A stretch of DNA of 64,000 bases from Candidatus Gottesmanbacteria bacterium (lineage in GTDB: Bacteria > Patescibacteriota > Microgenomatia > UBA10105 > UBA927), in contig CAWEKC010000005.1 in assembly GCA_963809665.1 (NCBI GenBank), positions 104,392 to 168,391 of the forward strand, given 5' to 3'. Under the pieces are notes generated by a model. It was not told where the DNA came from and searched no databases. It saw nothing but the letters and a program-made list of their open reading frames with translations. Shown here piece after piece: positions 6,402 to 62,652 of this stretch. The first letter of the stretch is position 1. Every line of letters begins with the position of its first letter. Position numbers and translations under genes: made by a program.

Positions 6402-6857
6402 TTAAATCGTCTTTGGTTTCACCAGGAGCGTCCGGGCGGCGCCCTCGCCGACGGATTCCGTTTCCACCCGCTCGTCGCCGGCAAGTGTGAGGTGAATAAC
6501 ACGGCGTTCCGACGGTGAGAGGTGGGGGAGTTCTATCGGGCGGCCGGCGGCCAGTGCGCGCTCAGCGGCGTGCTGGGCCATAAGCATTAACGCCTCTTCG
6601 CGTTTTTCGCGGTAATCACCCACGTTGACGTAGACTTTTACCCACGCCTCCAATTCTTTGGAAACCAACAGTCCTAAAATAATCTGGAAACTCTCAAGTG
6701 TTTTCCCGTGGAAACCGATGAGCAATCCCGTCTCTTCCGTTTCGATGTGTACGCGGTACGCCCCGGTTTCATCGACATCAACCACGACCTGACCGGCAAC
6801 ATCGAGCCGCTTCAAAAAATCTTCCGTTATCTGTTTTACTTTTTCTATATGTTCCAT
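6402..6857 (-). CDS. jag: Jag/KhpB RNA-binding protein (KH + R3H domains)
   Basis: ...GYRVHIETEETGLLIGFHGKTLESFQIIL... forms the KH-like domain and the C-terminus ERRVIHLTLAGDERVETESVGEG is an R3H domain; it sits at the conserved position after yidC. Confidence 0.85.
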   Translation of the reverse strand: MEHIEKVKQITEDFLKRLDVAGQVVVDVDETGAYRVHIETEETGLLIGFHGKTLESFQIILGLLVSKELEAWVKVYVNVGDYREKREEALMLMAQHAAERALAAGRPIELPHLSPSERRVIHLTLAGDERVETESVGEGAARTLLVKPKTI

Positions 6858-6859
6858 GA

Positions 6860-7672
6860 TTATTTCTCTTTATTGATCGCGATCTGCTGCAGGATACCAA
6901 AAAGCCCGAAGATGTTCCAGTACAGTGCGAGCCCCAACGGGAACGTATAGGCGAAATATCCGAACATGATAGGGGTGATGATCGCCATTTGTTTTTGCAT
7001 ATCTGCCGCCATGTCCTGTTTAGGTTTTTCACCCTTGACCGCCAAAGCTTTAGCATCGGCGGTGAATTTGGTATCTGTGGGTGATATTGCGGGCATCATG
7101 AGTTTTGTCTGCCACCACTGGAGCGCGGCTGTAATCAAAGGAACCAGCAGAAGCAAATACCCGTATGTCTGAAACTGCGACGGCTTGAGCGCAAGGTTGA
7201 CGCCGAAAAAATTAAGATCCAAGTTGGTAATTTTAAATGCGGGCAGATACACGACCTGATTAATCTCACCCATTATTTTGGTTATGTTGCCGTTATTCAA
7301 CACCTGATAAAACACATTGTAAAGCGCAATGAGGACGGGCATTTGAATTAGGAGGGGAAGGCAGCCCGCGGCGGGATTTACCCCGTGTTCTTTATAGAGA
7401 GCCATCTGCGCGGCTTGGAGTGCTTTTTTATCATCTTTGTGTTTAATGGAAAGCGCGTCCATGTGGGGCTTGATCCGTGCCATTTTTTTGGCGCTCCGCA
7501 GTTGGGCCGCCATGAGAGGATAGAGTATAAGCCGGATAATGAGGGTAAGCCCGATGACGGCAAATCCCAAGGGGCCGGGAATGTGTAAATATTCAAAAAG
7601 TTTGTACAGGGCAATCAGGACGTTTAAAATCGGCCAGACGAGAATTTGGTTCCAGAGATTCGGATTTGTCAT
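6860..7672 (-). CDS. yidC: membrane protein insertase YidC (short form)
   Basis: LIIRLILYPLMAAQLRSAKKMARIKPHMDALSIKHKDDKKALQAAQMALYKEHGVNPAAGCLPLLIQMPVLIALY is the canonical YidC/Oxa1 core. Confidence 0.9.
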   Translation of the reverse strand: MTNPNLWNQILVWPILNVLIALYKLFEYLHIPGPLGFAVIGLTLIIRLILYPLMAAQLRSAKKMARIKPHMDALSIKHKDDKKALQAAQMALYKEHGVNPAAGCLPLLIQMPVLIALYNVFYQVLNNGNITKIMGEINQVVYLPAFKITNLDLNFFGVNLALKPSQFQTYGYLLLLVPLITAALQWWQTKLMMPAISPTDTKFTADAKALAVKGEKPKQDMAADMQKQMAIITPIMFGYFAYTFPLGLALYWNIFGLFGILQQIAINKEK

Positions 7673-7722
7673 AAATTAAATAATAAACAAATATTTTTTA
7701 TATTCTTTATTCACGTATCTTA

Positions 7723-7965
7723 TTATTTATTTGGTATTGGGTCGTACCCGCCGCGGCTGAATGGGTGGCAGCGGATAATGCGTTTAAACCCCAGCCACGA
7801 TCCGTATAGTATACCATAGCGCGAGATTGCGTCATAGGTATACTCGCTGCACGTGGGCCGGAAGCGGCATACGCTGTCCACAAGCCACAATGATTTTAAT
7901 ATACCTGTGTCAGGGGACAAATAGCGCTGGTAAAAGCGTATGGATTTTAAAATGAACCGTTTCAT
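7723..7965 (-). CDS. yidD: membrane protein insertion efficiency factor YidD
   Basis: [67 protein letters not shown]. Confidence 0.85.
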
Positions 7966-8279
7966 ATGGTAAGCAGCCTGCTGATAATTTTTTCTACTTC
8001 TGCTTGGGGTAATTCAGCAAAATTCTTTTTCGCGATAAGAATACCGTCAACCTGTCCGGTTTTGGGCAATAGAAGCCGCACCGATTCGCTCATGGTCCGC
8101 CGCATCCTGTTGCGGCTTGTCGCGCGTTTATCTATTTTTGTCGATACGATAAACGCAAAACGGGAGACATGAGTGGTTTTTTTATAAACAAGCTCAATAC
8201 TGTCGCTATGTACACGCATTCCGCGACGCAGAATCGCGGCGATCTCTTCTTTGGGAAGTCTATGATCAGGGGAAAGCAT
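7962..8279 (-). CDS. rnpA: RNase P protein component
   Basis: [27 protein letters not shown]...[22 protein letters not shown]; a 4-nt overlap with yidD. Confidence 0.85.
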
Positions 8280-8297
8280 ATGAAGTTGCCTGCCTTG

Positions 8298-8438
8298 TTA
8301 CACAACCGACACGCGGCGCCGTCCGACCAGTCTGCGGTGCTTCAAAACCTTGCGGCCGCCGATCGTACGCATCCGCTGCCGGAACCCGTGTTTCCGGATG
8401 TGTTTTTTCTTTTTCGGCTGATAAACGCGCTTCGGCAT
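8298..8438 (-). CDS. rpmH: 50S ribosomal protein L34, a 46-aa gene not in the supplied ORF track
   Basis: Hand translation of the minus strand gives [46 protein letters not shown], the canonical L34 sequence, at the expected position upstream of rnpA. Confidence 0.85.
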
Positions 8439-8471: not shown

Positions 8472-11400
8472 CTACGGGGCGACTTCCTGCCAACTCACAG
8501 ATAATTTCTTCATTGGCTCCGGCATGGTCATGAGTAGTTGCGGGTCATAGAGGAACAGCTCTGACGCTGTGGTGGTGTTGCCGGCGTCTCTCACGTTCCG
8601 CTGGAGCAGGAAGTTTCCTGCTATAAACGAACCCTGCCCGACAAACCGATCCGTAGCAGGTCCTGAACCGGTACCTGTAATGAAAGAATGTGACGGGTCC
8701 GTAATATATATTCCTTCAACTACCGGCACGCTGGATATATACGGCACGCCCACTGACGGATCAATGGTTATATTTCCATTAACAATGAATGCGACAAACC
8801 CGGTACCGGTAATATTAATCCTGCCTTCGATACTCAGGTTGCCGTCAACAATAAATATTACTTTTTGACCTGCTGTAACCACCCAGTCGCCTGATGTGCT
8901 CATATTTCCCTGCACATAATATGGGGTGGTTCTTGAAGCAGGTTTCGGAATGGGGGACGCGGGATCTGTCCAATCCGGGTTGTCAGGGAACCCGCCGAAC
9001 TGGCTCACCATCAGTTGGTAGTAGTCCGTGTCGGGCGCCGGCGCCGTGTCGTGTGCCAGCCATTTTTGACTTGACACCCAGTCCTGGCCGTTTGTTATGC
9101 CGCTCCAGTCAAAGTTGGCGCTGGTCCCGTACGTGGCGACGCCCGGATATCCGCCGGTTCCGTTCTTAATGAATACGTCATGTGGATTCGGCGGGATAGG
9201 AGGGGGTATGAGGGATTGCATCGCTAATGCCGCATACACGTCGCCGCCGCTGGCCTGGCTCCACGGAACGCCGTGCATGTAGCCGATGTCCCACGTAAGG
9301 GTATCGCCAGCGGGTAAATCCGCAGATTGGGTTTCACCGGTGGTTGGAGCCGTAGTCCGTTGCCAGCAATACCGTGCGGGCAGATATCCTGCCGGAATAG
9401 TAGGCTGGATCGTATATCCGTTCCCGGCTGTTGCCGGATCGTACACAATATACTGGCTGCCGACTTGGGACGGCGGGACTGGAGCGGGGTGGGAAGGGGA
9501 GGAGGGGGAGAATGTGAATGTTGAACCGGCGATGCCGCCCGTGCCGCCCGCGCGTATTGTGGCGCACGAGGTGTTCGTCGGGTTAACGGTCAGTGCTCTG
9601 GCCTGAATGGTGCCGGATGACAGGCAGTAAAATGGAAGGTTAGTAGATACACATGCAAATCCCTGCGGATTGCCGCCTATGGGCACAGCAAAGACACCGA
9701 TGTTGGAGGAATACTGTTTTATATCCGGAATAATACCGGGATATCTATGCGTACCTGAGAATGTGTTACCAAGGTTTAACGAGAGGTCGCCCTCTTCGTT
9801 CGGCCAATTGGGAAACGGTTCCGGATTTAACCGCCCCTGAATGGCATTGATGGGAAAGTTGCGTGATATAACATCCCAGTCTGTTTTTATAGTCATATCG
9901 TTCCCCACAAACTCGCAGGTATTCGTAGCGGAAACGTCACAGCGATACGGAACGTTTATGGTTGCGTCCCCTGCACCTGTTTCGTTCGATTCGTTTATAT
10001 GACACGTGGCGGTTACGGTGGTCGATCCGCCGTTGCCTCCGGTTACCTCTGTTTGGTATTGAAGAGTATCGTCACTGGCAGGGCTTACGGTAGCAATAGT
10101 GGTGTTATTTGAGACAAAAGTGACGCGGGCAATCGTGCTGTTTGTCGCCGTTACCGTTGCAAGAAGGGTTGCCTTGGCTCCGGTTTCGACCGTTACAGGA
10201 TTCGGGGTGAGGGTAACTGTGCAATCAGGCGTCGGAACCGTAATCGTTGACGTGCCTGTGCCCGTCTGTCCTCCGGGCATGTGGCACGTGGCGGTTAACG
10301 TAGATGACCCCGCAGTACCGCCTGTTGCAACGGTTTGGTAGGGGGAGCTGCTGTCGCTTGACGGGTTAATTGTAGCAACATTCGTATTGCCCGAGACAAA
10401 GGTGACATTGGATATAGTCCCGCCTTGTACGCTCGTATTGGCGGTGAGCGTTCCCGTTGACCCCGTATTTAGGGTCAGGGGGTTCGGAGATATGCTGTTT
10501 ACCTGGCATGCTACGCATACTTTCGTTCCGTCGCAGGTTCCGCCGCACCCATCTCCGCAGGTCGATCCAATGCAGGTGTCGGCTGCGCAACTGCAGTCAG
10601 GGGTCTTCGTTCCGTTACATGTTCCGCCGCAACCATCACCACACGTAGATCCTTGGCAGATATCGGCTGCGCAACTGCAGTCAGGAGAACAGGAGGGAAT
10701 CCATGTACAAAAATGTTCATTACTGGTATTGCAACTTATGTCACAACTCGCCACGGTATCTAGGTTAGTACACTGATTCTGAGTGCCCCATGCATTACAA
10801 TTCATTTGGTTTTCGCCTAAATCACACCATTCGTGGTAAACACACGATCCTCCACCGCCAAATTGGTGACAATAACCAATATTGTTAGGATCACACCATA
10901 TATGAGTGATGCTACACCAGTTGTCTCCAAGGGTCCCTCCACATAATATCGATCCCTGACATCCTGCCTCGACTTGTTCAAAAAGCCTCAGGCTTATCTT
11001 TTTTTTCGGCTTCACAAACCTACCCAAGTGAAAGCCGTTCGCCTTCTTTATAAAATCCTCTGCCTTTTGAGTACATACATCCCTTGCTGGTCTTCCGGGA
11101 TCAAAAATCATACACAAGTACGTATACATGTCCCTGCTCATCATATTTGGGTCTGTCTGCGTCTTGGCAAAAGCTTCGGGACTATATTGGACGGAGAGTG
11201 TTAACTGATCTCCTTGAGTTGTTGCTCCCAAGCTTGAAAACTCGATGTCATTTCCCGCGGTATCCTTTCCCGCAAGAAGCTGCACCGCGTGCTGAACTTC
11301 CGGGGTAAAAACTACCGTAACTTTGGTAATATTGCCTGTTATGCGTTTTGTCGAATATTTTTGCGAATACAGGAATACATTCCCGAGGATTTCCGAAACA

Positions 11401-11525
11401 CTGAAATTATACCCGGGGATTTGATTGACGGCGGTAAACTGAACGAGCTTTGTCTGAAGCAAAAGCCAGCCAACCAACCCCCACACAAGAACCACAATGA
11501 GTACCAGCCACTTGGCCCACTTCAT
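8472..11525 (-). CDS. large membrane-anchored surface protein with two tandem 28-aa Cys-rich repeats and two bacterial Ig-like (Big_2-like) domains
   Basis: N-terminal TM anchor MKWAKWLVLIVVLVWGLVGWLLL; the repeats CSCAADICQGSTCGDGCGGTCNGTKTPD / CSCAADTCIGSTCGDGCGGTCDGTK correspond to an 84-nt DNA tandem repeat at about 10580-10700; two ~90-aa repeats ...ARVTFVSNNTTIATVSP...TVTATC... are Big_2-like. Confidence 0.6.
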   Translation of the reverse strand: MKWAKWLVLIVVLVWGLVGWLLLQTKLVQFTAVNQIPGYNFSVSEILGNVFLYSQKYSTKRITGNITKVTVVFTPEVQHAVQLLAGKDTAGNDIEFSSLGATTQGDQLTLSVQYSPEAFAKTQTDPNMMSRDMYTYLCMIFDPGRPARDVCTQKAEDFIKKANGFHLGRFVKPKKKISLRLFEQVEAGCQGSILCGGTLGDNWCSITHIWCDPNNIGYCHQFGGGGSCVYHEWCDLGENQMNCNAWGTQNQCTNLDTVASCDISCNTSNEHFCTWIPSCSPDCSCAADICQGSTCGDGCGGTCNGTKTPDCSCAADTCIGSTCGDGCGGTCDGTKVCVACQVNSISPNPLTLNTGSTGTLTANTSVQGGTISNVTFVSGNTNVATINPSSDSSSPYQTVATGGTAGSSTLTATCHMPGGQTGTGTSTITVPTPDCTVTLTPNPVTVETGAKATLLATVTATNSTIARVTFVSNNTTIATVSPASDDTLQYQTEVTGGNGGSTTVTATCHINESNETGAGDATINVPYRCDVSATNTCEFVGNDMTIKTDWDVISRNFPINAIQGRLNPEPFPNWPNEEGDLSLNLGNTFSGTHRYPGIIPDIKQYSSNIGVFAVPIGGNPQGFACVSTNLPFYCLSSGTIQARALTVNPTNTSCATIRAGGTGGIAGSTFTFSPSSPSHPAPVPPSQVGSQYIVYDPATAGNGYTIQPTIPAGYLPARYCWQRTTAPTTGETQSADLPAGDTLTWDIGYMHGVPWSQASGGDVYAALAMQSLIPPPIPPNPHDVFIKNGTGGYPGVATYGTSANFDWSGITNGQDWVSSQKWLAHDTAPAPDTDYYQLMVSQFGGFPDNPDWTDPASPIPKPASRTTPYYVQGNMSTSGDWVVTAGQKVIFIVDGNLSIEGRINITGTGFVAFIVNGNITIDPSVGVPYISSVPVVEGIYITDPSHSFITGTGSGPATDRFVGQGSFIAGNFLLQRNVRDAGNTTTASELFLYDPQLLMTMPEPMKKLSVSWQEVAP

Positions 11526-11546
11526 GAATCCAGTATAACAAAGAGA

Positions 11547-13256
11547 TTATTTCAAAGTAAAGAGAGGGTCGTCGGATGTATAAGAATTAAAGGCTTGAAA
11601 ATCATCGGCTAGGTGTTGAGTACTATTTTCAATATCGCTAGCAAGCGGATCAGAAAGAGGATTCGGAATCCCGCATTCAGCCAGAACACCATGTGCCAAG
11701 CACGCGTCAGAATATATAGCCAAGTCCGAACTGGTAGTAAGCGCTCCGATTAAAAAAACCGTGTTAATATCCCGAAAATATGACGTGTCGCCCTGAAGAT
11801 TCAGGTGATAGATCCAAGCTTGATTCTCTGCCCGCATCAACCTTCCTGTTTCATCGGCCCCATAATAAAAACCGGAGGCGCTATTGTATTGATATTTAAG
11901 AGGCATCGTTCCCGGCCCATCCGCGGTGAGAACCAGAGAGAATCCCTGTCTCGGATCAATAAGGAATTCTTTTTTAGCCAGTATGTCATAGATTGCTATA
12001 TCACCTTTCCCTTGTTTTAACAAATCCAGATACTGATCATAGGTAACATCGGGGTGATTCATAACATACTTGTACCGCAACCAGCAGTCCTGAAGATATA
12101 CCTGGGCTATGTCATCAGCTCCCTTTTGGGTCATATGGACTTCCGTAAAATTAAAATCTTCCCCATCCTGGGCATTCTGGGATAAACCAATAGTCACGGG
12201 GATTTCAAAACCGTCTGTGTTTCCTATCTTTGTTTCATAATAGACGGCCGGATATGCCTCAGAATAATTTCGGGATTCCGGCAACCGCCAGACATCACCA
12301 TCTTTCACCAATAGGATATTATTGGCATTATCAACAAGCCGTGTGCCGTACTTATCCTCCATCAGATATCCCTCATATTGGTTGCCGTCTGTTGCTGTGA
12401 TTGTCTCCGGGTTTGATGTGTCAAAGGGCATTTCTATGCCTGCCGGAGTCGGGGCGACAGTTTCGATGGGGGTGATGGTGGCTGTTTCCGTGGGGGTCAC
12501 GGTGGGAGTTTCAGTTAGGGTAGGCTCAATGGTAACCGTTGAGGTGAGGGCTTGTGTTTCCGTCATAGCCGGAACAACATCCGTAGTTGTCGGTGCCGTC
12601 CCCTGGGTTGCAATGTCGGGAGTGACGAAATTAACCGTAACACCGTCGCATCCGGCAAGCGCCAGGACACCCAACATGGCTGCCTGGGCAACTTTCTGCG
12701 GATCTATGGTGCCCCGTGCCTTGGCAATGACATTCTTCAGTGTGAGTTTTCCCCAGTTGGGATTCCAGTCGCAGGCCAGCTTAGCAGCACGTTCCACAAA
12801 ATTCAGAGCCAGGCGGGCCTGAGTCTGGGCAGTCCCGTATGCCTCCGGTATCCCGCTTGAGGGGGTTAATAGTGCTTCCAGTCTGGCCGCCCGCTGTAGT
12901 AGGACAACCATCGTGAGGCTGCGGTCGGTTGCCATCTTGTTATCAGGGCTCATGCCAGCCAGTTGTTCCGCACTTGTCGTCACCCCGAACTTAGCCAGCT
13001 TCCGTGAGCCTACGATCTCTACGGCAATACCGGCTGCTTTATCAGCATCATACGTGGCGTGGTCCGAAAATTCCTTGGCGCTGTTGATGGAAATCCCTTT
13101 TTCAAACCGTTCCATGGAGGCTGGCTGTTCGTAAAACGAGTTGGGGACAATATAGGCGCGGGAAAGGCTTCGGGCAACATCCTTGAAGGCTTCGGCAAAA
13201 TTGATAAGCCGCGGGCTTTCTTTTGCGTACCGTATCTCTGCGCTCATATCAATCAT
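11547..13256 (-). CDS. hypothetical protein with a Thr/Pro-rich linker
   Basis: 569-aa ORF with a central low-complexity TETPTVTPTETATITPIETVAPTP linker; no recognised catalytic motif. Confidence 0.5.
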   Translation of the reverse strand: MIDMSAEIRYAKESPRLINFAEAFKDVARSLSRAYIVPNSFYEQPASMERFEKGISINSAKEFSDHATYDADKAAGIAVEIVGSRKLAKFGVTTSAEQLAGMSPDNKMATDRSLTMVVLLQRAARLEALLTPSSGIPEAYGTAQTQARLALNFVERAAKLACDWNPNWGKLTLKNVIAKARGTIDPQKVAQAAMLGVLALAGCDGVTVNFVTPDIATQGTAPTTTDVVPAMTETQALTSTVTIEPTLTETPTVTPTETATITPIETVAPTPAGIEMPFDTSNPETITATDGNQYEGYLMEDKYGTRLVDNANNILLVKDGDVWRLPESRNYSEAYPAVYYETKIGNTDGFEIPVTIGLSQNAQDGEDFNFTEVHMTQKGADDIAQVYLQDCWLRYKYVMNHPDVTYDQYLDLLKQGKGDIAIYDILAKKEFLIDPRQGFSLVLTADGPGTMPLKYQYNSASGFYYGADETGRLMRAENQAWIYHLNLQGDTSYFRDINTVFLIGALTTSSDLAIYSDACLAHGVLAECGIPNPLSDPLASDIENSTQHLADDFQAFNSYTSDDPLFTLK

Positions 13257-13320: not shown

Positions 13321-13367
13321 TTGACAATCGCCGGCAAGTTTCCTAGTATGTGGACAAGTTATCCACA
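13321..13367 (+). promoter_or_regulatory. dnaA promoter (TTGACA-N17-TAGTAT) followed directly by two DnaA boxes (TGTGGACAA inverted, TTATCCACA)
   Basis: ttgaca 13321-13326, 17-nt spacer, tagtat 13344-13349; DnaA boxes 13349-13357 and 13359-13367, consistent with autoregulation. Confidence 0.5.
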
Positions 13368-13388: not shown

Positions 13389-14771
13389 ATGGATCTTATC
13401 AAACTCTGGAAGTCTGTGTTGTCGGAACTTGAGTTGTCGGTTTCAAAAGCCACGTTTCAAACGCATTTTGCCCATTCGACACTCGTCTCCTTTACCGACA
13501 ACGTGGCCACCATCGGATTTTCCAACCCCCTCATGCGTACGCTTGTTGAAACCCGCTATTACAGCCTTGTCAAAAGCGTCCTTGACCACCATGCAAAACA
13601 AAACACGAGCCTGATATTCGTGGTCGTTGCCAAAAAGGAAACGCTTGATCCCTCCAGCGCGGGACCGCTTTTCGCCCAGACGCTCGGCCGCGAGGAAATA
13701 AGCATTTCATCGGTTGCCCGCCGTCTTCATATCCGTCCCGACGCAACGTTTGAAAGTTTTGCCGTGTCAACCACCAACCAGATGGCGTATGCGGCAGCAA
13801 CCGCGGTTGCCAAACATCCCGGCACGTCATACAACCCTTTATTTTTTTACGGCGGCACAGGGGTGGGAAAGACCCACCTCATGCACGCCATTGCAAATCA
13901 ACTATTAGCTGCCCGTCCTGCGATGCGCATCGTCTATTGTATGGGAGAAGAATTTTTGAATGAAATTATTGAAGCTATCCAGACCAAGTCCGCGCGTCAG
14001 TTTAAACAGAAATACCGGAGTGCCCAACTTCTACTGGTTGATGATGTGCAATTTATTGCCGGCAAACAGACGGCGCAGGAGGAATTTTTCCATACATTCA
14101 ATACGGTCCACCGCGAGGGGGGACAGATCGTTCTCACGAGCGACCGCCCGCCGTCGGAGATTTCGCGGCTTGAGGACCGCCTCCGCAGCCGATTTGAGGG
14201 AGGGCTTACGGTTGATGTGGCTGCGCCGGATTTTGAGCTGCGGGTTGCTATTGCAAATATTAAAGCGGGGGCCATGGGGCTTGCTGTCCCGCCGGAAGCG
14301 GCACAGCTTATGGCGGCAAACATCACCGATACGCGCGCAATTGAGGGGTTTCTGCGGCGTCTTACGACCGAGGTGGCCACCCGCAAATCTGCTGTCACCG
14401 CGGAGATGGTCTCGTCGCTGTTAAACATTAAGAACCACGGAAACGGCGTCACCATCCCATCTAAGTCCGCAAAACGTGTGAGTCCGCAGGAAGTTTTAGA
14501 TTCCGTAGCGGCGTATTATGGTCTCAAAACCACGGCTCTCAAGGGTACCAAGCGCGACCGTCCCATTGCGCGCCCTCGGCAGGTTTTTATGTATTTGTGC
14601 CGCACGGAGCTCGGCCTCACCCACGAGGACATCGGCGGGTCCCTTGGAGGACGGGATCATACGACAATTATGCACGGGGTTGAGACGATAACGCGCGAAT
14701 TGTCCACAAACACGCGTCTCCGCGAAGCGGTGGAGGGGATAAAACAAAAATTATGGGCCCAATCAACATAA
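13389..14771 (+). CDS. dnaA: chromosomal replication initiator DnaA
   Basis: Walker A GGTGVGKTHLMHAIAN, sensor motifs and the C-terminal HTH (...KRDRPIARPRQVFMYLCRTELGLTHEDIGGSLGGRDHTTIMHG). The start is moved to ATG 13389 (MDLIKLW...) because the track's upstream start overlaps the promoter and DnaA boxes. Confidence 0.93.
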   Translation: MDLIKLWKSVLSELELSVSKATFQTHFAHSTLVSFTDNVATIGFSNPLMRTLVETRYYSLVKSVLDHHAKQNTSLIFVVVAKKETLDPSSAGPLFAQTLGREEISISSVARRLHIRPDATFESFAVSTTNQMAYAAATAVAKHPGTSYNPLFFYGGTGVGKTHLMHAIANQLLAARPAMRIVYCMGEEFLNEIIEAIQTKSARQFKQKYRSAQLLLVDDVQFIAGKQTAQEEFFHTFNTVHREGGQIVLTSDRPPSEISRLEDRLRSRFEGGLTVDVAAPDFELRVAIANIKAGAMGLAVPPEAAQLMAANITDTRAIEGFLRRLTTEVATRKSAVTAEMVSSLLNIKNHGNGVTIPSKSAKRVSPQEVLDSVAAYYGLKTTALKGTKRDRPIARPRQVFMYLCRTELGLTHEDIGGSLGGRDHTTIMHGVETITRELSTNTRLREAVEGIKQKLWAQST

Positions 14772-14773
14772 AG

Positions 14774-14894
14774 TTTTCCACTTATCCACTCCGCACGCGG
14801 AGTTATCCACATTGTTATCCACTCTCTTTCCACGATTTGAATAATTGTTTTGGGCCGTTGACACAATCAACTAAAAAGCATACACTTTTCCACA
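14774..14894 (+). promoter_or_regulatory. candidate oriC: a cluster of five DnaA boxes in the dnaA-dnaN intergenic region plus an AT-rich stretch
   Basis: TTTTCCACT 14774-82, TTATCCACT 14782-90, TTATCCACA 14803-11 (perfect consensus), TTATCCACT 14815-23 and TTTTCCACA 14886-94, followed by AT-rich tactattaatatgaacattgcaatactt. Confidence 0.6.
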
Positions 14895-14921
14895 CCGATT
14901 TCTATTACTGCTACTATTAAT

Positions 14922-16028
14922 ATGAACATTGCAATACTTCAGGAAAATCTTTTAAAAGCGCTCACAAGAACGGGGAGAATTGTCGCACAAAAGACCCAAT
15001 TACCCATCATGCAGAATGTGCTTCTTACCACAGATGACTCACGGCTCAGGATCGTTGCCACGAACATGGAGACCACGGAAGTTGTGTTGGCTGGGGCAAA
15101 AGTGGAGAAAGATGGGGGAATCTGCGTTTCTTCGCGTTTGTTGACCGACCTTGTTATGTCCCTTCCTCAGGATACGATTCACATGGTAGTCAAGGAAGGC
15201 TCTCTTCATATCCGGTGCAACGGCGTTAATGCAACCATCCCCGGTGTGGCGGCGTCTGAATTTCCCCCTGTCTCATCCCTGAAAAAGAAAACCGGAATGA
15301 AACTGGATAAAACGACGTTTCTAGACGCTCTCACGGGTGTTTTGTTTGCCGCGGCAACGGACGAGGGGAGGCCGCTTCTCACAGGCGTAAAGATTACCAC
15401 CCAGGAGGGGACAGCACTGTTTGCGGCAACGGACGGATACCGCCTGTCCATGAAAAAAATAACATCGGGGAAATTCGGTGACCTTAATTTCGTCATACCC
15501 GCACGCGCCCTTTCAGAGGTCGTGAAAGTGAGCCAGGAAGAAAAGGACGTGACGGCCGTAGAAATGATAGAGACGCAGGAAGGGCAGCTGGTGTTTAGCG
15601 TGGGGGATACGCAGGTTCATACCCGCCCGATTGCCGGTGAGTATCCCAATATCGAAAAAATCGTTCCCACGCGGCACAATACACGCGTGTTGGTTGATAA
15701 AACAAGCTTACTACGCGCGGTAAAGTCCGCGTCCATATTTGCCAGGGACAACGCGAACATTCTCCGTCTCCATATTGAAAACCAAAAAATGATCGTGTCT
15801 GCCAACACGCCGCAGGTTGGGGAAAACCACGTGGAGGTGGAAGCCAAGGTGGACGGCGACGGGGGAGACATTGCCTTTAACAGCAGGTTTCTGCTGGAGT
15901 TTCTCAACGGGTTTGCCGGTGAAGAGCTTTTATTTGAAATGACGGGATCTCTTAATTCAGGAGTGTTCCGGCCCGTGAAGGACGATTCCTATCTTCACAT
16001 CATCATGCCGGTGAGAGTTCAGAGTTGA
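14922..16028 (+). CDS. dnaN: DNA polymerase III beta sliding clamp
   Basis: MNIAILQENLLKALTRTGRIVAQKTQLPIMQNVLL... has three-domain clamp architecture and a length of 368 aa. Confidence 0.93.
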   Translation: MNIAILQENLLKALTRTGRIVAQKTQLPIMQNVLLTTDDSRLRIVATNMETTEVVLAGAKVEKDGGICVSSRLLTDLVMSLPQDTIHMVVKEGSLHIRCNGVNATIPGVAASEFPPVSSLKKKTGMKLDKTTFLDALTGVLFAAATDEGRPLLTGVKITTQEGTALFAATDGYRLSMKKITSGKFGDLNFVIPARALSEVVKVSQEEKDVTAVEMIETQEGQLVFSVGDTQVHTRPIAGEYPNIEKIVPTRHNTRVLVDKTSLLRAVKSASIFARDNANILRLHIENQKMIVSANTPQVGENHVEVEAKVDGDGGDIAFNSRFLLEFLNGFAGEELLFEMTGSLNSGVFRPVKDDSYLHIIMPVRVQS

Positions 16029-17014
16029 CCATTTCCTGCCGGTACCAGCCACAGAAACAGCGTTGCGTTTTGAACGGCGCCGGTCACTGTTTTTCCCGTA
16101 CCGGTCATATAGAGGGCGGGCAGTAATAGATTCTTCTGCGGCGCATACACGATCGCACTGTCTTCAATAACAAAGCTTGAAAAATCAGGGACCACTCCCT
16201 GTTCGGGCGTTTGAGGATTGTGTGTATCAAGAAGCGTGCCCCTCCCCGCAGTAAGGCTGCCAAGAACCTCGTCGCGTGTTAATAGCGGCGTTGCGGTTCC
16301 CGTCTGAAACGATGCGGGCGGCGGAATAATATTTGCGGAACGGATGATGCCTCCGCTGTCGGCGATGACGGAGACGGGAGAGATACTTAAGTCGGCAGTC
16401 AATAGCGGGTAAGAAGCCACAATATAGGAATAAAAATAATTCTTAAATGATGCCGGCGGGGGAGTATCTATAACAAGGAGCCCGTCAAACGGGCCGTTGG
16501 TAGTTCCCGCGGCTTTAATGCTGAGATTTTGCGTCGGAGGGATGACCGCTATCAAAAACTGTTGGACTGCGGCCTCCGGCGCGATCGGGCTCAGAGGCTT
16601 GGAACTTTTTACCTGGCGGAAGGTGATGGACATTGCGCCGTTTGTTTGTGTGACCGTAAGAGCTGCATCATTCGGCCGCGACCAGGTTTTGGTATACGAG
16701 CCTCCGCGGACAAGCGTGACGGGGGTTGGTTCCAGGCCAAGGGCGGGGGCGGCTTTTACCGCCGTTTGTTCAATTGACGAAAGACCTGGGGGCTGAAACG
16801 TATACGTTGGAAGCGATGTGGGGATTGAAGGCGGCATGGTAAACGAGAACGAAACCTTCGGCGGCTGGGGGAATATACCGGTCGGGCCCGGAGCGGCAAG
16901 TGTCGGAGACGGGGACGGGCCGGCAGGAGATGACGGTTGATGTACGGTCAAAACGATGGCCACTGCGACTACAACAATAAATATGGCCCCCACAATCAAC
17001 AATATTTTATTCAT
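16019..17014 (-). CDS. membrane-anchored Pro-rich hypothetical protein, last gene of the T4SS-like gene run
   Basis: TM anchor MNKILLIVGAIFIVVVAVAIVLTV followed by a Pro-rich extracellular region. Confidence 0.45.
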   Translation of the reverse strand: MNKILLIVGAIFIVVVAVAIVLTVHQPSSPAGPSPSPTLAAPGPTGIFPQPPKVSFSFTMPPSIPTSLPTYTFQPPGLSSIEQTAVKAAPALGLEPTPVTLVRGGSYTKTWSRPNDAALTVTQTNGAMSITFRQVKSSKPLSPIAPEAAVQQFLIAVIPPTQNLSIKAAGTTNGPFDGLLVIDTPPPASFKNYFYSYIVASYPLLTADLSISPVSVIADSGGIIRSANIIPPPASFQTGTATPLLTRDEVLGSLTAGRGTLLDTHNPQTPEQGVVPDFSSFVIEDSAIVYAPQKNLLLPALYMTGTGKTVTGAVQNATLFLWLVPAGNGQL

Positions 17015-17017
17015 ACG

Positions 17018-19246
17018 TTATGACCCCGCCTTAACAGGGGTTGACGGGCACGGCTTTGTACATCCCGCAGTTGTCACACATCCGCTAATCGCCTCCGGCG
17101 AAAGCGCGGAATCTCCCGTGGGCACGAAATCCAGAACATTGCCCCCCGACAGTACGCCAAAGTGCAGATGGGCACCACTGGAGTTGCCTGTCTGATCCAT
17201 CCACCCAAGCTGTGCGTTTGCGTTAACGTGTTGCCCCGCCTGAACACCCAGCGTGCTCTCCAGGTGCGCAAAAATGAGTGTATACCCATCGTCCGTTTTT
17301 AGAATAACATGATTGCCGTAGCCTGCATATGAGGGGCTTCCGCCGCACGTGTCTCCCAGGTGCCCGGAATTGGTTACGCAGCCGGCGTAAGCCTCAACAA
17401 CGGTTCCCGCCCTCGGCGTATAGACGGGGCCGCCGGAAAAACTGGCAATATCAATGCCGTTTGCCGCAGATCCCGACGAATGAGACGTGCTTACGGAACA
17501 AAATACTGCGGTATTAGGGCCTTGGGTTATATAGCCGCTGGTGGGCCAGCGGCAATCACCCGTACAGGCAATAAAACTACACAAGGGATCGTCAGGCGTC
17601 AGTTGGCAATTAACAGTCGGACCGCCCGTCATGCCGCCCCCCGCGTTGGTTGCAATAGACGTGTCAACCATGGATTGGTTGAACGAGGGCGTGTTTATCA
17701 AGGGAAACAGCGGGAGAAAAAAAACAGCTACAATTCCCACCATAGCAACAAGAATCAAATTGTCTTCAGGGTTTTTGCTGTTGCCCATGAACAGCAAGCT
17801 TTTGAGGATGGCGGCGCCCTTCCGGAGCAGCCCCTTGGCAAAATCCGATGCGATCATTGCAAGCGTGGCGATTCCACCCGTACTTGCTCCCGCCACAGCC
17901 TCAGCGCCCACCTTCATTGCTGTGCTGACAGCTGCTTTTGTCGCAGCCTCTTTAACACCCGCCTTAATCGCTTTCTTCATGACATAATTGGTGCCCATAC
18001 GGAGAAGCTGCTGGCCATAACCAAGCGCGATATTGCCGTAGTGGGAAACGCTGACCACCGTGTAACTCAATGGGGTGGTGATCCGGTAGGTTTCCATGTA
18101 TGTAATGACGTTTACGATCGGCGGTCCGCGGAAAACCGTTGTGGCGACATCGGATACAATTGCCGTAAATCTGGATGTAATTTTTAGTGCAGCACCCTGA
18201 TCACCCATCATGCGGTTTGCATCGGTCCTGAGCCTGGTAAACCACGCAGAGTTGACAAAATTTGTTCCCCACCTGTCCGTCATTGTCGCCAAAACATTCG
18301 GAGGGAGGGTTTCGGGATGATTGACGATAGTGTCCAGCGGTTTCAGCAGTATTTTATTAATGATGGTCCCTTTTTCTGCCGTCGGTACGACAGCGTCAAG
18401 TATTCCCGCGGCACCTTTTTGAAAATTATTTGTTGCAAGCGCGGAGAATGATGGCGCCCCCGGAAATGTGCCGATGGATGCGGAGAGAACCTTTGCGGCA
18501 TCCGTGACTTCGGCCGCGCGGGGCACAAACACTTTTACGTCACGGTCGGGTTGCTCAGAAGCAAACGACGTGAGCGCATGGAAAAAGAGCTCTTTTTCTT
18601 CCGGTGGTCCAGGGCGCTGGATCGCGGCGACGGCGATTTCCCTGATCCGTTCCGGCGTCACAGGTGTGCCCTGTGCCTCCTGCGCTTGCAAGGTCGACTT
18701 CTTACTACCAATAAAAATATCCAAGCTTTCAGCTTGATCCCCACTGTCCCACACATCACCCCAACCCGGTACCGACTCGAGGGGCGCGCCCTGAATTTCC
18801 TGCGGCGCTGGAGCTTGTGGAGAAGTTTGCTCAGGGTACGCACCAGAACCTCCCGCAATTGTTTCAGAAATAGTTACGTTTGATTTTTTTGCGTTTTCTA
18901 CTAACGCCCTGACGAATTTTTTTGACGCGGTAGCCGCATTGACACGCTGCGCTTTTGCGTCGGCAAATTCCCTATCAAACTCCTCAACCAGCTCATTCAA
19001 TTTTGCTTCTTCAATGTTGTTGGGAAGAAGTGCTGCCGCCTGAGCGCCCTGCTCACCCGCAGCCCCCGTTGTTTCAAAATAGCGTAAGAACGCCTCGGTT
19101 GGCCGTTTGGGAAACGGCCACGACGTGAACGGATTTGCCCCCGGGTATTTATTGAAAAACCCCTCGAGCGTTTCCGGATCTTCCTGGAGGTTTAGCAAAA
19201 TCCCGAGCGCCCTCTGTGTTTCCTGTGATGACGCAAATTCATCCAT
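17018..19246 (-). CDS. large protein with a C-terminal M23 (LytM-type) metallopeptidase domain and internal TM segments; putative cell-wall-remodelling component of a T4SS-like apparatus
   Basis: C-terminus ...GNHVILKTDDGYTLIFAHLESTLGVQAGQHVNANAQLGWMDQTGNSSGAHLHFGV carries the HxxxD / HxH M23 signature; it lies immediately downstream of virB4. Confidence 0.7.
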   Translation of the reverse strand: MDEFASSQETQRALGILLNLQEDPETLEGFFNKYPGANPFTSWPFPKRPTEAFLRYFETTGAAGEQGAQAAALLPNNIEEAKLNELVEEFDREFADAKAQRVNAATASKKFVRALVENAKKSNVTISETIAGGSGAYPEQTSPQAPAPQEIQGAPLESVPGWGDVWDSGDQAESLDIFIGSKKSTLQAQEAQGTPVTPERIREIAVAAIQRPGPPEEKELFFHALTSFASEQPDRDVKVFVPRAAEVTDAAKVLSASIGTFPGAPSFSALATNNFQKGAAGILDAVVPTAEKGTIINKILLKPLDTIVNHPETLPPNVLATMTDRWGTNFVNSAWFTRLRTDANRMMGDQGAALKITSRFTAIVSDVATTVFRGPPIVNVITYMETYRITTPLSYTVVSVSHYGNIALGYGQQLLRMGTNYVMKKAIKAGVKEAATKAAVSTAMKVGAEAVAGASTGGIATLAMIASDFAKGLLRKGAAILKSLLFMGNSKNPEDNLILVAMVGIVAVFFLPLFPLINTPSFNQSMVDTSIATNAGGGMTGGPTVNCQLTPDDPLCSFIACTGDCRWPTSGYITQGPNTAVFCSVSTSHSSGSAANGIDIASFSGGPVYTPRAGTVVEAYAGCVTNSGHLGDTCGGSPSYAGYGNHVILKTDDGYTLIFAHLESTLGVQAGQHVNANAQLGWMDQTGNSSGAHLHFGVLSGGNVLDFVPTGDSALSPEAISGCVTTAGCTKPCPSTPVKAGS

Positions 19247-19250
19247 AGCG

Positions 19251-21299
19251 TTACACCTTTTCTACGGTAAATGTCGGCCGGGCGCTCTTATCCTCTTCGG
19301 TTATCATCATTGCCTGCCCGCCATCGCTACGCTCCCCGGCCGCCTCGCCTGGTTTGGCTGGCGGGCTGGCAGGCGTTAGCGGGCGGGGTTTTTGTACGCT
19401 TGCTTTGTTCTCTGCCAATTCCTGCGGTTTGGTGGTGGCAAGCGCGTGCTCTTCGGGGCTTGATATGACGCGGATGGCCGCGTGAGCCGGACCGGCAAAA
19501 AACAAGCCCTCGCCGATGTCGGCAGAGAGAAGCAGGTGTTGTTCTCCCTCGGACAAATAAAACACCTGCGCCACCTTATCAATGGCGGCGGACGATTGTT
19601 TGAGAAGTATCTGGACACTGCTGTTCTGGATGATGGATTTGCCCAGGTCAACGGACAAAAAGTCCTCGACGTCCTGGGTAATGGTCGTGAGCCCCAGATA
19701 ATATTTACGCGCACGTTTGGCGATGGAATTCAAAAATTGCCCCGAGTCCGGATATTTCATCATATACCACGCCTCGTCAACGATAAGGATCCGGCGCTTA
19801 ATGTCCCTGCGGATTTTCGTCCAGATATAATCAAGGATGAGGTACATGGCGATAGGCCGCAGCTCGTCTTCCAGATCCCGTATCGAAAATACCGTCAGTT
19901 GGTTACGTATTTCTACGTTGGTCTGCCGGTCAAAGATGCCGACCAGACTTCCTTTAACAAATTTTTCTATACGGTCCGCAAGGCCCCGGGCCGCAGGATC
20001 TTCCATGCCGATAAGAGCTTTATATAAATCTTCCATAAGCGGCGGCTCTTTCGTTTGTGTGGCGGGGTCAGGGGTAATTCCTTTTTGTTTATAGGTAAGG
20101 ATGAGCGCGCGGTCCAGAATGGCGTCTTCCGTGGGGGTGAGTTTTCCCATAACCACGCGGAAAAACCCGTGCAGGGATAATATTTTCTGGTTCAGCTCGC
20201 TTTCTTCCTCTTCTCCCTTGGTTTGGGTGAAGAGCGAGAGGTCAAACGGGTTAATTTTTGTCGTTGATCCGAAATGAAACCGGATGTATTCGCCCCCGAG
20301 CGCGTGGGAGAGCGATTCATATTCGGATTCCGGATCTATGACAATCACTTCCGTGTCAAACATAAGGCTCCGCATGATTTCCAGTTTCACCATGTAGCTT
20401 TTCCCGCTCCCGGACTTCCCGAACACGACGGTATTGGCGTTTTCCATCGTAAACCGGTCAAAGATAACCAGGCTATCATTGTGTTCATTAATACCATAGA
20501 GAATTCCTTCGTTGGCGGTGAGCTCCGATGTGGTAAAGGGGAATGTGGTCGCGAGCGACGTGGTGTCCATATTGCGTGTGATAACGAGTTGGTCCCGCCC
20601 CATGGGAAGCGTGGCTTTAAACCCTTCTTCCATCTGCAGAATTGCGCGTTTGGTAATAATAAGAAGCGACGAAAGCGTTGCCTCCACCTGTTTTGTGGTC
20701 TTGTTGAGGTCTTCAAGATTTTTTGCGGGTATCGTGATATACAGGGCAAACTGGAAAAAGCGCTGGGCGCCCTTGGCCAGTTCCTGCTGGAGGGCAACCG
20801 CGTCCTCGAGGGCGACCTGGACCGAGGGCTCCACAACCCTCCCGCGCTTCATGTCTGACTGAATGGTTGCCTCCATTTCCCCGACCCTGCGCTTGAGGTT
20901 TTCCAGAACCTCCTCGCTTTTCGTAGGGTACACATACATGGCAATGTCCAGCGTGTGGTTGAACGATATAAGCGGCTCCAGCCAGTTTGCGGACACAAAC
21001 CGCGGGTACCCGGCGACAAACAGTGTACGGAAATACCTGTCGCCGATTTTTATCGTATCAAAATCCACTTCAATCGCCGGCGGGGCAATGAGATCTTTCA
21101 CGGTTAACGGCCCGCCTCGCGTCGACGGTGCGTCTTCGCGAGTCGAGGCGGGCACGGGATTGACGAATTTTTTGACTGCTGATTGAACGCTCGATACATC
21201 CATATGGTTACGTTCCCACCGCCTTCTCAATATTGGTGGGGTTGACAATCGGCGCGCCCTGGTTATAAATTTCATAGAACAGGCGCACAAGCTGCTCAT
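19251..21299 (-). CDS. virB4: VirB4/TrbE/CagE-family type IV secretion ATPase
   Basis: Walker A VVFGKSGSGKSYMV, DPESEY, Walker B RRILIVDEAWYMM and ARKYYLGLTTITQ; 682 aa with a Pro-rich C-terminal tail. Confidence 0.85.
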   Translation of the reverse strand: MSSLCACSMKFITRARRLSTPPILRRRWERNHMDVSSVQSAVKKFVNPVPASTREDAPSTRGGPLTVKDLIAPPAIEVDFDTIKIGDRYFRTLFVAGYPRFVSANWLEPLISFNHTLDIAMYVYPTKSEEVLENLKRRVGEMEATIQSDMKRGRVVEPSVQVALEDAVALQQELAKGAQRFFQFALYITIPAKNLEDLNKTTKQVEATLSSLLIITKRAILQMEEGFKATLPMGRDQLVITRNMDTTSLATTFPFTTSELTANEGILYGINEHNDSLVIFDRFTMENANTVVFGKSGSGKSYMVKLEIMRSLMFDTEVIVIDPESEYESLSHALGGEYIRFHFGSTTKINPFDLSLFTQTKGEEEESELNQKILSLHGFFRVVMGKLTPTEDAILDRALILTYKQKGITPDPATQTKEPPLMEDLYKALIGMEDPAARGLADRIEKFVKGSLVGIFDRQTNVEIRNQLTVFSIRDLEDELRPIAMYLILDYIWTKIRRDIKRRILIVDEAWYMMKYPDSGQFLNSIAKRARKYYLGLTTITQDVEDFLSVDLGKSIIQNSSVQILLKQSSAAIDKVAQVFYLSEGEQHLLLSADIGEGLFFAGPAHAAIRVISSPEEHALATTKPQELAENKASVQKPRPLTPASPPAKPGEAAGERSDGGQAMMITEEDKSARPTFTVEKV

Positions 21300-21906
21300 T
21301 GGTTAATTGTTTCGCCGCCAGGCCGATGCGGTTCAGAAGCCGGATGATCTGATCTCCTTTCGGCGCCAGGACGATAAGCGCCCGTTCAAAAATATAGGGT
21401 CTCGGGTACGGGAGGCCCCGTTTTTTTGACCCGCCCAAAAGTACGTTAGCGCTCACGCCCAGCTCCAGATATGAGAAGGGTACGACGATGTAAAATTTCT
21501 TATCCAGAACATCTTTTTCCTTAACGGTTGCTGCGACAAACAGGCGGTATCCGTGCATCGCTGCGGCAAGCTTCGGATTTTTCTGTATTTTTTCGCGGTC
21601 TTCCAGCGTCTGCAGATATGCCGTCACGTCTTTGTGTTGGGTGCGGATAAGAATTTCAATCGGAAACGACAGGGAGTTGAGGAGCCCCGCATACGCATAA
21701 ATAATGGCATCCTGTTCTTTTTCGGACAACAATCCGAAATTGACGGCGGTCGCCGATACGACCATGGAACACGAGCCGTCTGTATACATAACAATCCCGT
21801 GGTCGATAGTTTCTATTTCTGTGAATAGTTGTGTGGATGAGCGGATGGGCACGATTGAATCCGGCATACGATTACTGTGTTGTTGTCCCGAACAATTCTT
21901 TCTCAA
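21208..21906 (-). CDS. hypothetical protein in the T4SS-like cluster; its 5' end overlaps virB4 by ~90 nt
   Basis: 232-aa ORF with no recognised motif; the true start may be an internal Met. Confidence 0.4.
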   Translation of the reverse strand: MRKNCSGQQHSNRMPDSIVPIRSSTQLFTEIETIDHGIVMYTDGSCSMVVSATAVNFGLLSEKEQDAIIYAYAGLLNSLSFPIEILIRTQHKDVTAYLQTLEDREKIQKNPKLAAAMHGYRLFVAATVKEKDVLDKKFYIVVPFSYLELGVSANVLLGGSKKRGLPYPRPYIFERALIVLAPKGDQIIRLLNRIGLAAKQLTNEQLVRLFYEIYNQGAPIVNPTNIEKAVGT

Positions 21907-23122
21907 GTTTTGCTCGTGTTATTTCTTTTTCTGTTTTTGCAAAAATTTCAAGCGCGGGTACGATCGATCCGTTGAGCGTGATTTGCGCCCGATCAAAGGT
22001 AAAGCGCAGGCGCGGATCCTCTACTTCTACAAAATACGTGCCATTGGGAAGCTGGGTGGATGCCGCAAATTGCCCGAGACGGTTTGTTTTGAGGGCCCGC
22101 AGCGGCATACCCTCTTTGTCTTTCACCGTCACGAGGACACCGGGTAATAAATTTTTATCTTTATCCTTGACGATCCCCGTGACGATATTGGGGAACGTGG
22201 TAAGCCGCGGAAGACCCACTTTTGCCGCCCGTCCGGGACCAATGACTTGGATGGTGGGCATAGCGGGTGTGGAAGGCGTTTGCGTCGTAGTCGTCGTTGT
22301 GGGCTCAATTTTCGGGGCGCTGCTTTGCGCTCGCAGATGTGCCATTTCCGTCATCATTTTTTCCTGTTCGGCCAAGAGTTCGGTCAATTGCGTCTGCAGT
22401 TCCGCTACACGAGATTCCGCAGCGTTTTTACTTTCCAACTCCGCCGTGAGCTTTTTAAGTTTTTCTTCAAGGACCGATTCTTTGAGCTGGGTATCCGCAA
22501 GCTCCCGTGCGACGCTTGGGGCGGGTCTCACAATCGGGGGAGGCGAAAAATCCATCTGACGCGCCCGTATAGCCGCCTGCATGGCAACAGGAGGTGCCTT
22601 TTTGGGTTTGGGCGTCCAAAAGTCGGAAAGAATGTCAAACAGGCTTCGCTTGGGGGCAGCAACCGTAATGACCTCCTGGGACGTGGGAGGCGGTACGCTG
22701 AAGGAGGGAGCAGGAATAAAAATATTTTGCAGAATATCTCCGCGGCGCGTCTGGGGCTCGGCAGCCCGCGGCGGGACAACCACCGCCCTACCGGCCGGCA
22801 GGTTTGATTGAGGTTGTGGTTGAGCCGGAGGTGAAACCTGTTTTTTCCATACATACTGCGTCGGGTTATAAATACTCCTGATAAACGAAAGAACCCACAC
22901 GTCCATAGGACGCTCTTCAACCGGTACAAATGCCAGCCCGAATCCCAGAATCGCAGAAAATACTGCCAGCGGCACGGTAAAAATAAATGGCAGCGGTAGT
23001 TTGTATATGATGTAGGCGACGACTGCCCCGCCCACAAGATACCCGAATTGTTTCAAAGTCATATCGCCGATCAGGCGGAATTGAAACGTGGTGACATTTT
23101 GCGGTATCGGATGCTGTTCCAT
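21872..23122 (-). CDS. membrane protein with a VirB3/PrgI-like N-terminal TM hairpin, a central coiled coil, a Thr-rich linker and a C-terminal carboxypeptidase-regulatory-like beta-sandwich domain
   Basis: MTLKQFGYLVGGAVVAYIIYKLPLPFIFTVPLAVFSAILGFGLAFVPVEERPMDVWVLSFIRSIY forms the TM hairpin; coiled coil LKESVLEEKLKKLTAELESKNAAESRVAELQTQL; C-terminus GVLVTVKDKEGMPL...GQFAAS...NGTYFVEV. Confidence 0.45.
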   Translation of the reverse strand: MEQHPIPQNVTTFQFRLIGDMTLKQFGYLVGGAVVAYIIYKLPLPFIFTVPLAVFSAILGFGLAFVPVEERPMDVWVLSFIRSIYNPTQYVWKKQVSPPAQPQPQSNLPAGRAVVVPPRAAEPQTRRGDILQNIFIPAPSFSVPPPTSQEVITVAAPKRSLFDILSDFWTPKPKKAPPVAMQAAIRARQMDFSPPPIVRPAPSVARELADTQLKESVLEEKLKKLTAELESKNAAESRVAELQTQLTELLAEQEKMMTEMAHLRAQSSAPKIEPTTTTTTQTPSTPAMPTIQVIGPGRAAKVGLPRLTTFPNIVTGIVKDKDKNLLPGVLVTVKDKEGMPLRALKTNRLGQFAASTQLPNGTYFVEVEDPRLRFTFDRAQITLNGSIVPALEIFAKTEKEITRAKLEKELFGTTTQ

Positions 23123-47029: not shown

Positions 47030-47032
47030 TGG

Positions 47033-47416
47033 GGACGTACAAGATTCGACAGTCCGAAGTTCTTTAACATTGCAGGCCGACTTTGACTTTAGAGTCGTTA
47101 AACACAGAGTCAAAAACTAAATGCTGAAGCTGAACAAGCAGAAGCTGCCTTCTACGCACGAAATTTTGCATTCGCAAGATTGAACGCGTAACGGCCATCT
47201 CTCGAATGTTTCTTCAGTGACGTTCCTGAGGTGTAAACAAAGCTGAGGTGCAGCTATACGGGTTCGACGTTCCTGTATAGTGAAGTCAATACGTCTTAAT
47301 CCCGCCATTCACTTGTCAATCAGCGAGGGCGGGATGACAATTAAAGATTGACTACGCCTGTAGATATGTTTCGGGACATCGCTCTGGACGAGAGCTCACT
47401 ACTCTCCGTCTCCACC
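47033..47416 (+). ncRNA. ssrA: tmRNA (SsrA), standard one-piece form
   Basis: The 5' end GGGGACG..GATTCGACAG; the 3' end GGAC-GAGAG-CTCACTA-CTCTC-CGTCTCC-A-CC closes a 7-bp acceptor stem with the 5' end; an internal ORF ...GCT GAA GCT GAA CAA GCA GAA GCT GCC TTC TAC GCA CGA AAT TTT GCA TTC GCA AGA TTG AAC GCG TAA is a candidate tag; it lies directly downstream of smpB. Confidence 0.7.
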
Positions 47417-47438
47417 CTTCGCTCCTCCTGTATGATAG

Positions 47439-59108: not shown

Positions 59109-59187
59109 CGGAGCACTCCGGAGAACAGCAACGCAAGCGAAATGACGGTCAGACACCCAAAAGCAAGGACCGTTTGCAGGAAAAGAT

Positions 59188-59409: not shown

Positions 59410-59510
59410 AGGAACTTTAGTATATTCCTTTAGAAAACATGGTCAAGTTCGTACAAGCGATTAAATTTTACTCAATTGATAATACTTAGTACATCAATTA
59501 TGATGAATAT

Positions 59511-60197: not shown

Positions 60198-60216
60198 TGT
60201 TTAGGTTCCTTAATAT

Positions 60217-60479: not shown

Positions 60480-60514
60480 CTTAGACTTATGGTTGTGGAA
60501 ATCTTGTTATACGA

Positions 60515-61957: not shown

Positions 61958-62020
61958 CAGTTGGCACTTAATATACTAAATTATTTTTACTATTCTTAGT
62001 TATTGGAATATAGTTAAGTT

Positions 62021-62636: not shown

Positions 62637-62652
62637 ATAGTATAATAAACAT

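Follow-up and report, generated by a model that had tools for sequence, protein, structure and literature searches.

The dnaA-dnaN spacer of a Candidatus Gottesmanbacteria genome as its very probable chromosomal replication origin

Gottesmanbacteria belong to the Microgenomates within the CPR/Patescibacteria. Where does replication of the chromosome begin in such an uncultured bacterium, and what does the DNA at that place look like? Only two pertinent entries were found in the literature on CPR origins: a mention of GC skew and boxes for Peregrinibacteria (PMC4736985), and a study of Patescibacteria that takes dnaA as a proxy for the origin, in which the origin DNA itself is undescribed (PMC12102498). 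In the 64,000-nucleotide stretch of DNA analysed here (the window), dnaA is followed by dnaN with a spacer of 150 nt between them (14772-14921; the dnaA stop codon occupies 14769-14771 and the dnaN ATG 14922-14924), and a sequence-only reading had proposed that a cluster of DnaA boxes in this spacer marks the likely oriC. The proposal is supported by a box-spacer-trio unwinding module of the basal unwinding system (BUS) type, by a conserved footprint in relatives, by the divergence of gene orientation at dnaA and by the signs of the GC skew. What the sequence shows is the elements themselves, how they are arranged and conserved, and how far they exceed chance. Anatomy and conservation support the call of oriC well, and very probably the 150 nt constitute the chromosomal oriC or, if not all of it, then its unwinding half.

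The spacer contains five DnaA boxes with at most two mismatches to the consensus (Table 1). They all lie on the + strand and together extend over 121 nt (14774-14894), as the sequence-only reading had stated. Its tally of one perfect box among five was also correct, while its count of four boxes with single mismatches was not: the box at 14774 has two mismatches, so the tally becomes one perfect box, three with one mismatch and one with two. An extra site in the spacer, at 14827, has three mismatches and is non-conserved, and a box with one mismatch occurs at 14700, within the 3' end of dnaA. Boxes with at most one mismatch number 24 in the window versus 15.0 ± 3.5 in shuffled sequences, and the densest 150-nt cluster of the window is the spacer, with four such boxes. 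Among 300 dinucleotide-preserving shuffles the largest cluster comprised three boxes, a size reached in three of the 300, and four boxes were reached in none. DnaA-box motif scanning had been suggested as a check on the proposed origin, and it singles out the spacer: neither the box scan nor the cluster scan found a second cluster elsewhere in the 64 kb. Loose box matches at 21.5-21.8 kb and at 63.0 kb were considered as origin candidates and rejected, as they formed no clusters. A palindrome (ACTCCGC-AC-GCGGAGT, 14788-14803) bridges two of the DnaA boxes. It was considered as a terminator of dnaA and rejected, being followed by no T run, uncalled by the terminator scan and not conserved.

Table 1. 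Features in and around the dnaA-dnaN spacer, in window coordinates. Identity is the mean pairwise identity in the footprint alignment of 12 sequences.
Feature	Position	Strand	Basis or remark	Identity
jag, yidC, yidD, rnpA, rpmH	6402-8438	-	left of dnaA	
1017-aa Big_2 surface-type protein and 569-aa protein without Pfam match	8472-13256	-	between rpmH and dnaA	
dnaA promoter-like TTGACA-17 nt-TAGTAT	13321-13349	+	consensus scan, 10/12 matches	
Upstream box TTGTCCACA	13349-13357	-	1 mismatch	
Upstream box TTATCCACA	13359-13367	+	perfect	
Inverted box pair TGTGGACAA-g-TTATCCACA	13349-13367		over predicted dnaA transcript start	
dnaA, 460 aa	13389-14771	+	true ATG 13389; Pfam DnaA_N, Bac_DnaA, Bac_DnaA_C; identical to P0001	
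DnaA box TTTTCCACT	14774	+	2 mismatches	
DnaA box TTATCCACT	14782	+	1 mismatch	
Distal tandem boxes TTTTCCACT and TTATCCACT	14774-14790	+	1-base overlap, 8-bp offset	0.86
12-nt inter-box spacer				0.26
DnaA box TTATCCACA	14803	+	perfect (0 mismatches)	
DnaA box TTATCCACT	14815	+	1 mismatch	
Perfect box TTATCCACA, 3-nt gap, TTATCCACT	14803-14823	+	box scan	0.76
Variable middle	14824-14856			0.33
TTGACA (-35) block	14857-14864			0.90
Promoter-like TTGACA-17-TACACT inside origin	14858-14886	+	consensus scan	
CATACAC (weak box/-10)				0.90
Weak second proximal box GCATACACT	14878-14886	+	4 mismatches, 8 bp from next box; read from sequence	
Proximal DnaA box TTTTCCACA	14886-14894	+	1 mismatch; points at trios	0.93
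GC-rich spacer CCGA	14895-14898	+	conserved as CCGn	
DnaA-trio array, eight trios	14899-14922	-	top strand TTT CTA TTA CTG CTA CTA TTA ATA	0.89
Least stable 41-mer of locus	14915-14955		nearest-neighbour stability, 99.5th percentile of window	
dnaN, beta sliding clamp, 368 aa	14922-16028	+	three Pfam beta-clamp domains (all)	
dnaN third codon positions				0.41
M23 peptidase, VirB4/TraG-type P-loop ATPase, PrgI-family protein cluster	16019-23122	-	directly after dnaN	

The part of the spacer next to dnaN carries a second kind of signal. In Bacillus subtilis, the BUS of oriC incC consists of DnaA-box 6/7, a GC spacer and DnaA-trios (Richardson 2016/2019, Pelliciari 2021). A trio is defined by a central A on the bound strand, with the consensus 3'-GAT-5', and a spacer of about 4 bp is typical in the published description of the BUS. 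The same order follows the box at 14886 of the Gottesmanbacteria spacer, in which TTTTCCACA is succeeded by the 4-nt spacer CCGA and by eight DnaA-trios. These read 3'-AAA GAT AAT GAC GAT GAT AAT TAT-5' on the bottom strand, and the last of them overlaps the A of the dnaN ATG. The published search rules for a BUS comprise a box with at most two mismatches, a spacer of 0-16 bp, at least three NAN trios and a second box with at most four mismatches; box, 4-bp spacer, eight trios and second box are all present here. A BUS scan of both strands of the window, for which a box with at most two mismatches, a spacer of 0-16 nt and at least four trios were required, returned the 14886 box and its trios as the top candidate. 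Its score is 21; in 200 shuffles the mean top score was 10.5 and the highest 18, so that none reached it. The interval 14899-14922 is also the best trio run of the window on either strand when boxes are disregarded.

An AT-rich stretch following the boxes had been noted from the letters as well. Positions 14890-14960 are indeed 68-73% AT versus about 50% for the window, a moderate AT-richness, and they contain the eight-trio array, which is more specific than what had been claimed. The least stable 41-mer of the locus (14915-14955) is about 71% AT, reaches into the first 34 nt of dnaN and is likely to be the zone into which unwinding would spread.

The evolutionary depth of this arrangement was examined in relatives. 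A scan of GTDB genomes with full-length DnaA was saturated by conserved motifs and gave relatives of only 33-51% identity, and 23 relatives came from scanning metagenomes with the N-terminal 133 aa of DnaA, a part that is poorly conserved. The whole spacer is contained in 11 of these 23, with DnaA 74-91% and DnaN 57-87% identical; two further relatives, L104 and L105, lie on contigs that are 1.09 and 1.00 Mb long. The name Candidatus Gottesmanbacteria is attached to relatives whose DnaA is 72-93% identical. The footprint alignment of 12 sequences shows conserved islands amid DNA that is otherwise unalignable (Table 1). The functional blocks are 0.76-0.93 identical, versus 0.26-0.41 for the DNA between boxes and for the third codon positions of dnaN. 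Box-to-box spacings of 21 bp and 12 bp are kept and the intervening bases are not, and the relatives differ in how far the distal cluster lies from the proximal module.

One feature of the alignment counts against the reading of the spacer as oriC. In 6 of 11 relatives a 1-nt insertion lies within the trio array, and the 3-nt register is lost after 3-4 trios; by the published BUS rules, 3-4 trios in register are still at the minimum reported to be sufficient. When whole loci were scored for their best BUS (±4-6 kb, 81 loci), it fell in the dnaA-dnaN spacer in 46 of the 81, and in 10 of 11 close relatives. The same box-spacer-trio design occurs before dnaN in distant Patescibacteria, including Amesbacteria (L002), Saccharibacteria (L006 and L051) and Magasanikbacteria (L029).

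Likeness to Bacillus incC extends to the details of the layout. Orientation was compared in the fetched loci, all with dnaA on the + strand. In the Bacillaceae spacers L012, L027, L055 and L073, TTATCCACATATCCACA-agac-CTACTACTATTACTACTA is followed by an AT-rich tract. The Gottesmanbacteria element shares with incC its location between dnaA and dnaN, the succession of distal and then proximal boxes on the same strand, the 8-bp offset and the 4-bp GC-rich spacer. Its box strand, trio strand, order and orientation are those of the Bacillaceae loci, and its CTA/TTA repeats on the top strand correspond to 3'-GAT/AAT-5' on the bottom. There are also clear differences from Bacillus. Here the strong proximal box adjoins the trios and the second box is very weak, with four mismatches; the distal boxes all point one way; a sigma-70-like promoter, itself conserved, shares bases with the proximal boxes; the origin spacer is compact, at 150 nt; and the incA/B-like upstream part is cut to two boxes. 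A separate, strongly AT-rich 27-mer like that of Bacillus is absent at the locus, where the trios run directly into the dnaN start codon, and the DNA beyond the trios (14915-14955) is far less AT-rich than the Bacillus 27-mer.

A second point of comparison is the bipartite oriC1/oriC2 of Helicobacter pylori, whose trio-bearing unwinding element is reported to be in the part downstream of dnaA (PMC8235120, PMC8287927). The present locus resembles that of H. pylori in having DnaA boxes on both sides of dnaA. It differs in that the upstream part holds only an inverted box pair over a promoter, for which a role in initiation is putative.

The proximal boxes share their bases with a promoter-like site, TTGACA-17-TACACT, which is a candidate promoter for dnaN. 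Its TTGACA is invariant in 12 of 12 aligned sequences, its -10 hexamer is at the same time the weak box GCATACACT, and this -10 and the predicted transcript start fall on the proximal DnaA boxes. Part of the conservation of the module could therefore serve transcription, and the promoter-like motif, like the missing AT-rich 27-mer, counts against reading the spacer as oriC. The start codon of dnaN is aligned with that of its relatives. In the window, dnaN has no Shine-Dalgarno sequence or ribosome-binding site, because the DnaA-trios run directly into its ATG; in close relatives GGAGGA or AAGGA is kept between trios and ATG. The trios themselves were considered as a ribosome-binding site and rejected, since the relatives have this separate motif 3' of the trios.

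It is conceivable, though rather unlikely, that the unwinding module of the origin and the dnaN promoter have become one fused element in the Gottesmanbacteria lineage. The trios may then be the 5' leader of dnaN, with no dedicated AT-rich unwinding element. If the two are fused, the open complex of RNA polymerase, or transcription into the trios, could supply the initial melting, and occupancy by DnaA could gate the synthesis of the clamp, mechanically coupling the firing of the origin to the expression of dnaN.

Signals of replication direction were considered next to the anatomy of the spacer. Gene orientation changes over at dnaA: left of it, each of the nine credible genes lies on the - strand, and beyond 23 kb the + strand carries 30 of 41, with the type IV secretion cluster at 16-23 kb as the exception. 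The two sides of dnaA also have GC skews of opposite sign, negative on the left and positive on the right, both in the window and in relatives, whose pooled flanks have a skew of -0.019 on the left and +0.023 on the right. The cumulative skew of the window declines between 1 and 7 kb and climbs from about 24 kb onward, as far as the window end. In the 64-kb sequence it is only roughly consistent with an origin at the spacer: the global minimum is at 6938, 7.8 kb left of the spacer, and a second local minimum is at 15042, at the locus. At four-fold degenerate sites the minimum is at 6432 and the curve is flat over 13-24 kb, the sites being too few to place the turning point more closely than about 10 kb. 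The position of these minima, about 8 kb from the spacer, is a further point against the oriC reading, as is the positive skew, opposite to that of its flank, of the segment 6.9-13.3 kb, which looks like an insertion specific to the lineage. A cumulative minimum far from the locus had been named as what would refute the proposal; so far as 64 kb can show, this is not the case. Within ±10 kb, L104 and L105 have their skew minimum inside dnaA or 0.8 kb upstream of the gene.

The gene order of the locus, jag-yidC-yidD-rnpA-rpmH, then dnaA-dnaN, then M23 peptidase, VirB4 and PrgI, is like that described for Patescibacteria, in which type IV secretion genes beside dnaA, dnaN, rpmH and rnpA are a known feature (PMC12102498). 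The type IV secretion-like cluster is syntenic in L085, L086, L104 and L105. The interval between rpmH and dnaA varies in the lineage, from 105 nt in L086 to secA in L105 and a glycosyltransferase cluster in L104, so that the two genes occupying it in the window look like a lineage-specific insertion; the segment 8472-13256 is a variable cargo site adjoining the origin.

Could the spacer be a DnaA-controlled regulatory region only, composed of a dnaN promoter with its operators and perhaps a datA-like titration site, with the origin elsewhere? Such a region would account for the conserved TTGACA-17-TACACT and for a proximal box at the predicted transcript start, and it would agree with a global skew minimum (6938) that is not at the spacer. 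We regard it as quite unlikely. It leaves unexplained a trio array that is conserved, correctly oriented and spaced, and matches Bacillus incC, and the separate GGAGGA/AAGGA in relatives argues that these trios are not a ribosome-binding site. It is opposed as well by the lack of any other box cluster in the 64 kb and by the local skew minima of the relatives, which are at dnaA.

The second set of boxes, upstream of dnaA, has to be judged together with the gene that it precedes. The encoded DnaA is canonical: the motifs for ATPase activity, arginine finger and box reading are present (Walker A/B, RLRSRF and GGRDHTT), and its best solved relative is the B. subtilis DnaA bound to the BUS (8btg, E 1e-92). 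About 18 of 20 relatives have a promoter-like TTGACA-17-TAnTAT whose -10 is followed by TGTGGACAA-g-TTATCCAC; DNA farther upstream is unalignable. In L093 and L097 the boxes are found between -35 and -10, so that the operator is shifted within the dnaA promoter. The sequence-only reading had described a second pair of boxes overlapping the dnaA promoter, and this pair is found directly after TTGACA-17-TAGTAT. It had further taken the two sets of boxes as a bipartite origin architecture. The upstream pair is conserved, in keeping with that view, but a two-part origin is not established, as the upstream part consists of no more than two inverted boxes at the dnaA transcript start, beyond which the DNA is not conserved.

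In E. coli and B. subtilis, dnaA is autoregulated through high-affinity DnaA boxes that cover its core promoter or transcript start. The Gottesmanbacteria boxes resemble these in their position and differ from them in forming a tight inverted pair, 1 nt apart. Since the pair directly follows the promoter's -10, an autoregulatory operator reads better than one half of a bipartite origin, and such an operator is the most likely identity of 13349-13367, whose layout is what one would expect of it. By analogy with B. subtilis, in which a distal box helps by looping or by delivery of DnaA (PMC6669920), the pair could possibly also act as a distal DnaA-delivery site.

That analogy is one of the points in favour of an origin upstream of dnaA, towards rpmH, a location known from many other bacteria, or of a truly bipartite origin in which the upstream pair is essential. 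The conservation of the pair, the unstable AT-rich 41-mer at 13243 and the cumulative skew minimum at 6.4-6.9 kb, near jag/yidC, point the same way. An origin of either kind is nevertheless very unlikely. There are only two boxes, exactly over the transcript start of the dnaA promoter, and the box and trio scan detected no trio array or BUS candidate upstream of dnaA on either strand. The AT-rich tract is not conserved, and the upstream DNA is wholly different among relatives, with rpmH in L086, secA in L105 and glycosyltransferases in L104. As for a chance clustering of 9-mers in intergenic DNA, single boxes with one mismatch are common (24 in the window where about 15 are expected), but this explanation is refuted by the shuffles, of which 0/300 reach the cluster size and 0/200 the BUS score, together with elements that are 0.76-0.93 identical where neutral sites are 0.26-0.41.

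Returning to the spacer as oriC, a sequence of events can be proposed, in which DnaA binding, duplex opening, the loading of the helicase and what the two promoters do are all inferred from sequence. DnaA would bind the double-stranded distal boxes (14774-14823) and the proximal box (14886-14894), perhaps with the weak box at 14878. ATP-DnaA would then oligomerise one way from the proximal box, over CCGA, onto the bottom-strand trios (14899-14922), and the oligomer would stretch the bottom strand so that the duplex opens. Melting would then reach the start of dnaN, whose first 30-35 nt are roughly 70% AT, and the helicase would be loaded there. The inverted pair at 13349-13367 would allow DnaA to repress its own gene.

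Other features were observed farther along the window. A tmRNA gene is located at 47031-47417 (Rfam, 122.8 bits), and six tRNA genes (four Ser, two Arg) lie at 48.7-53.6 kb. A further tRNA gene, at 60217-60481, is split by a group I intron (Rfam Intron_gpI, 60236-60434, 65 bits). It was missed by standard ARAGORN, and an intron-allowing run called it as tRNA-Asp(GTC), with an intron of 176 nt and a long, odd-looking extra arm, because of which both the identity of the tRNA and its splice site are doubtful. Beside this tRNA gene begins a low-GC island (59000-64000; 35-39% versus about 50% elsewhere), whose ORFs have no Pfam matches except for a histidine-kinase-type ATPase fragment (63351-63956). 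The island may have been acquired.

An origin in the dnaA-dnaN spacer is an expected and ordinary feature, its Bacillus-type design is already known, and it leaves the understanding of replication initiation unchanged. What it provides is the placement of the origin of an uncultured CPR genome, that of a member of the Gottesmanbacteria, to within about 150 bases. This placement can be used to orient the genome, to estimate growth rate from coverage (peak-to-trough ratio) and to annotate related genomes. With it, the Gottesmanbacteria branch of bacteria joins Bacillus and Helicobacter among the bearers of the box-plus-trio design, and the presence of the design there supports the view that it is ancestral.
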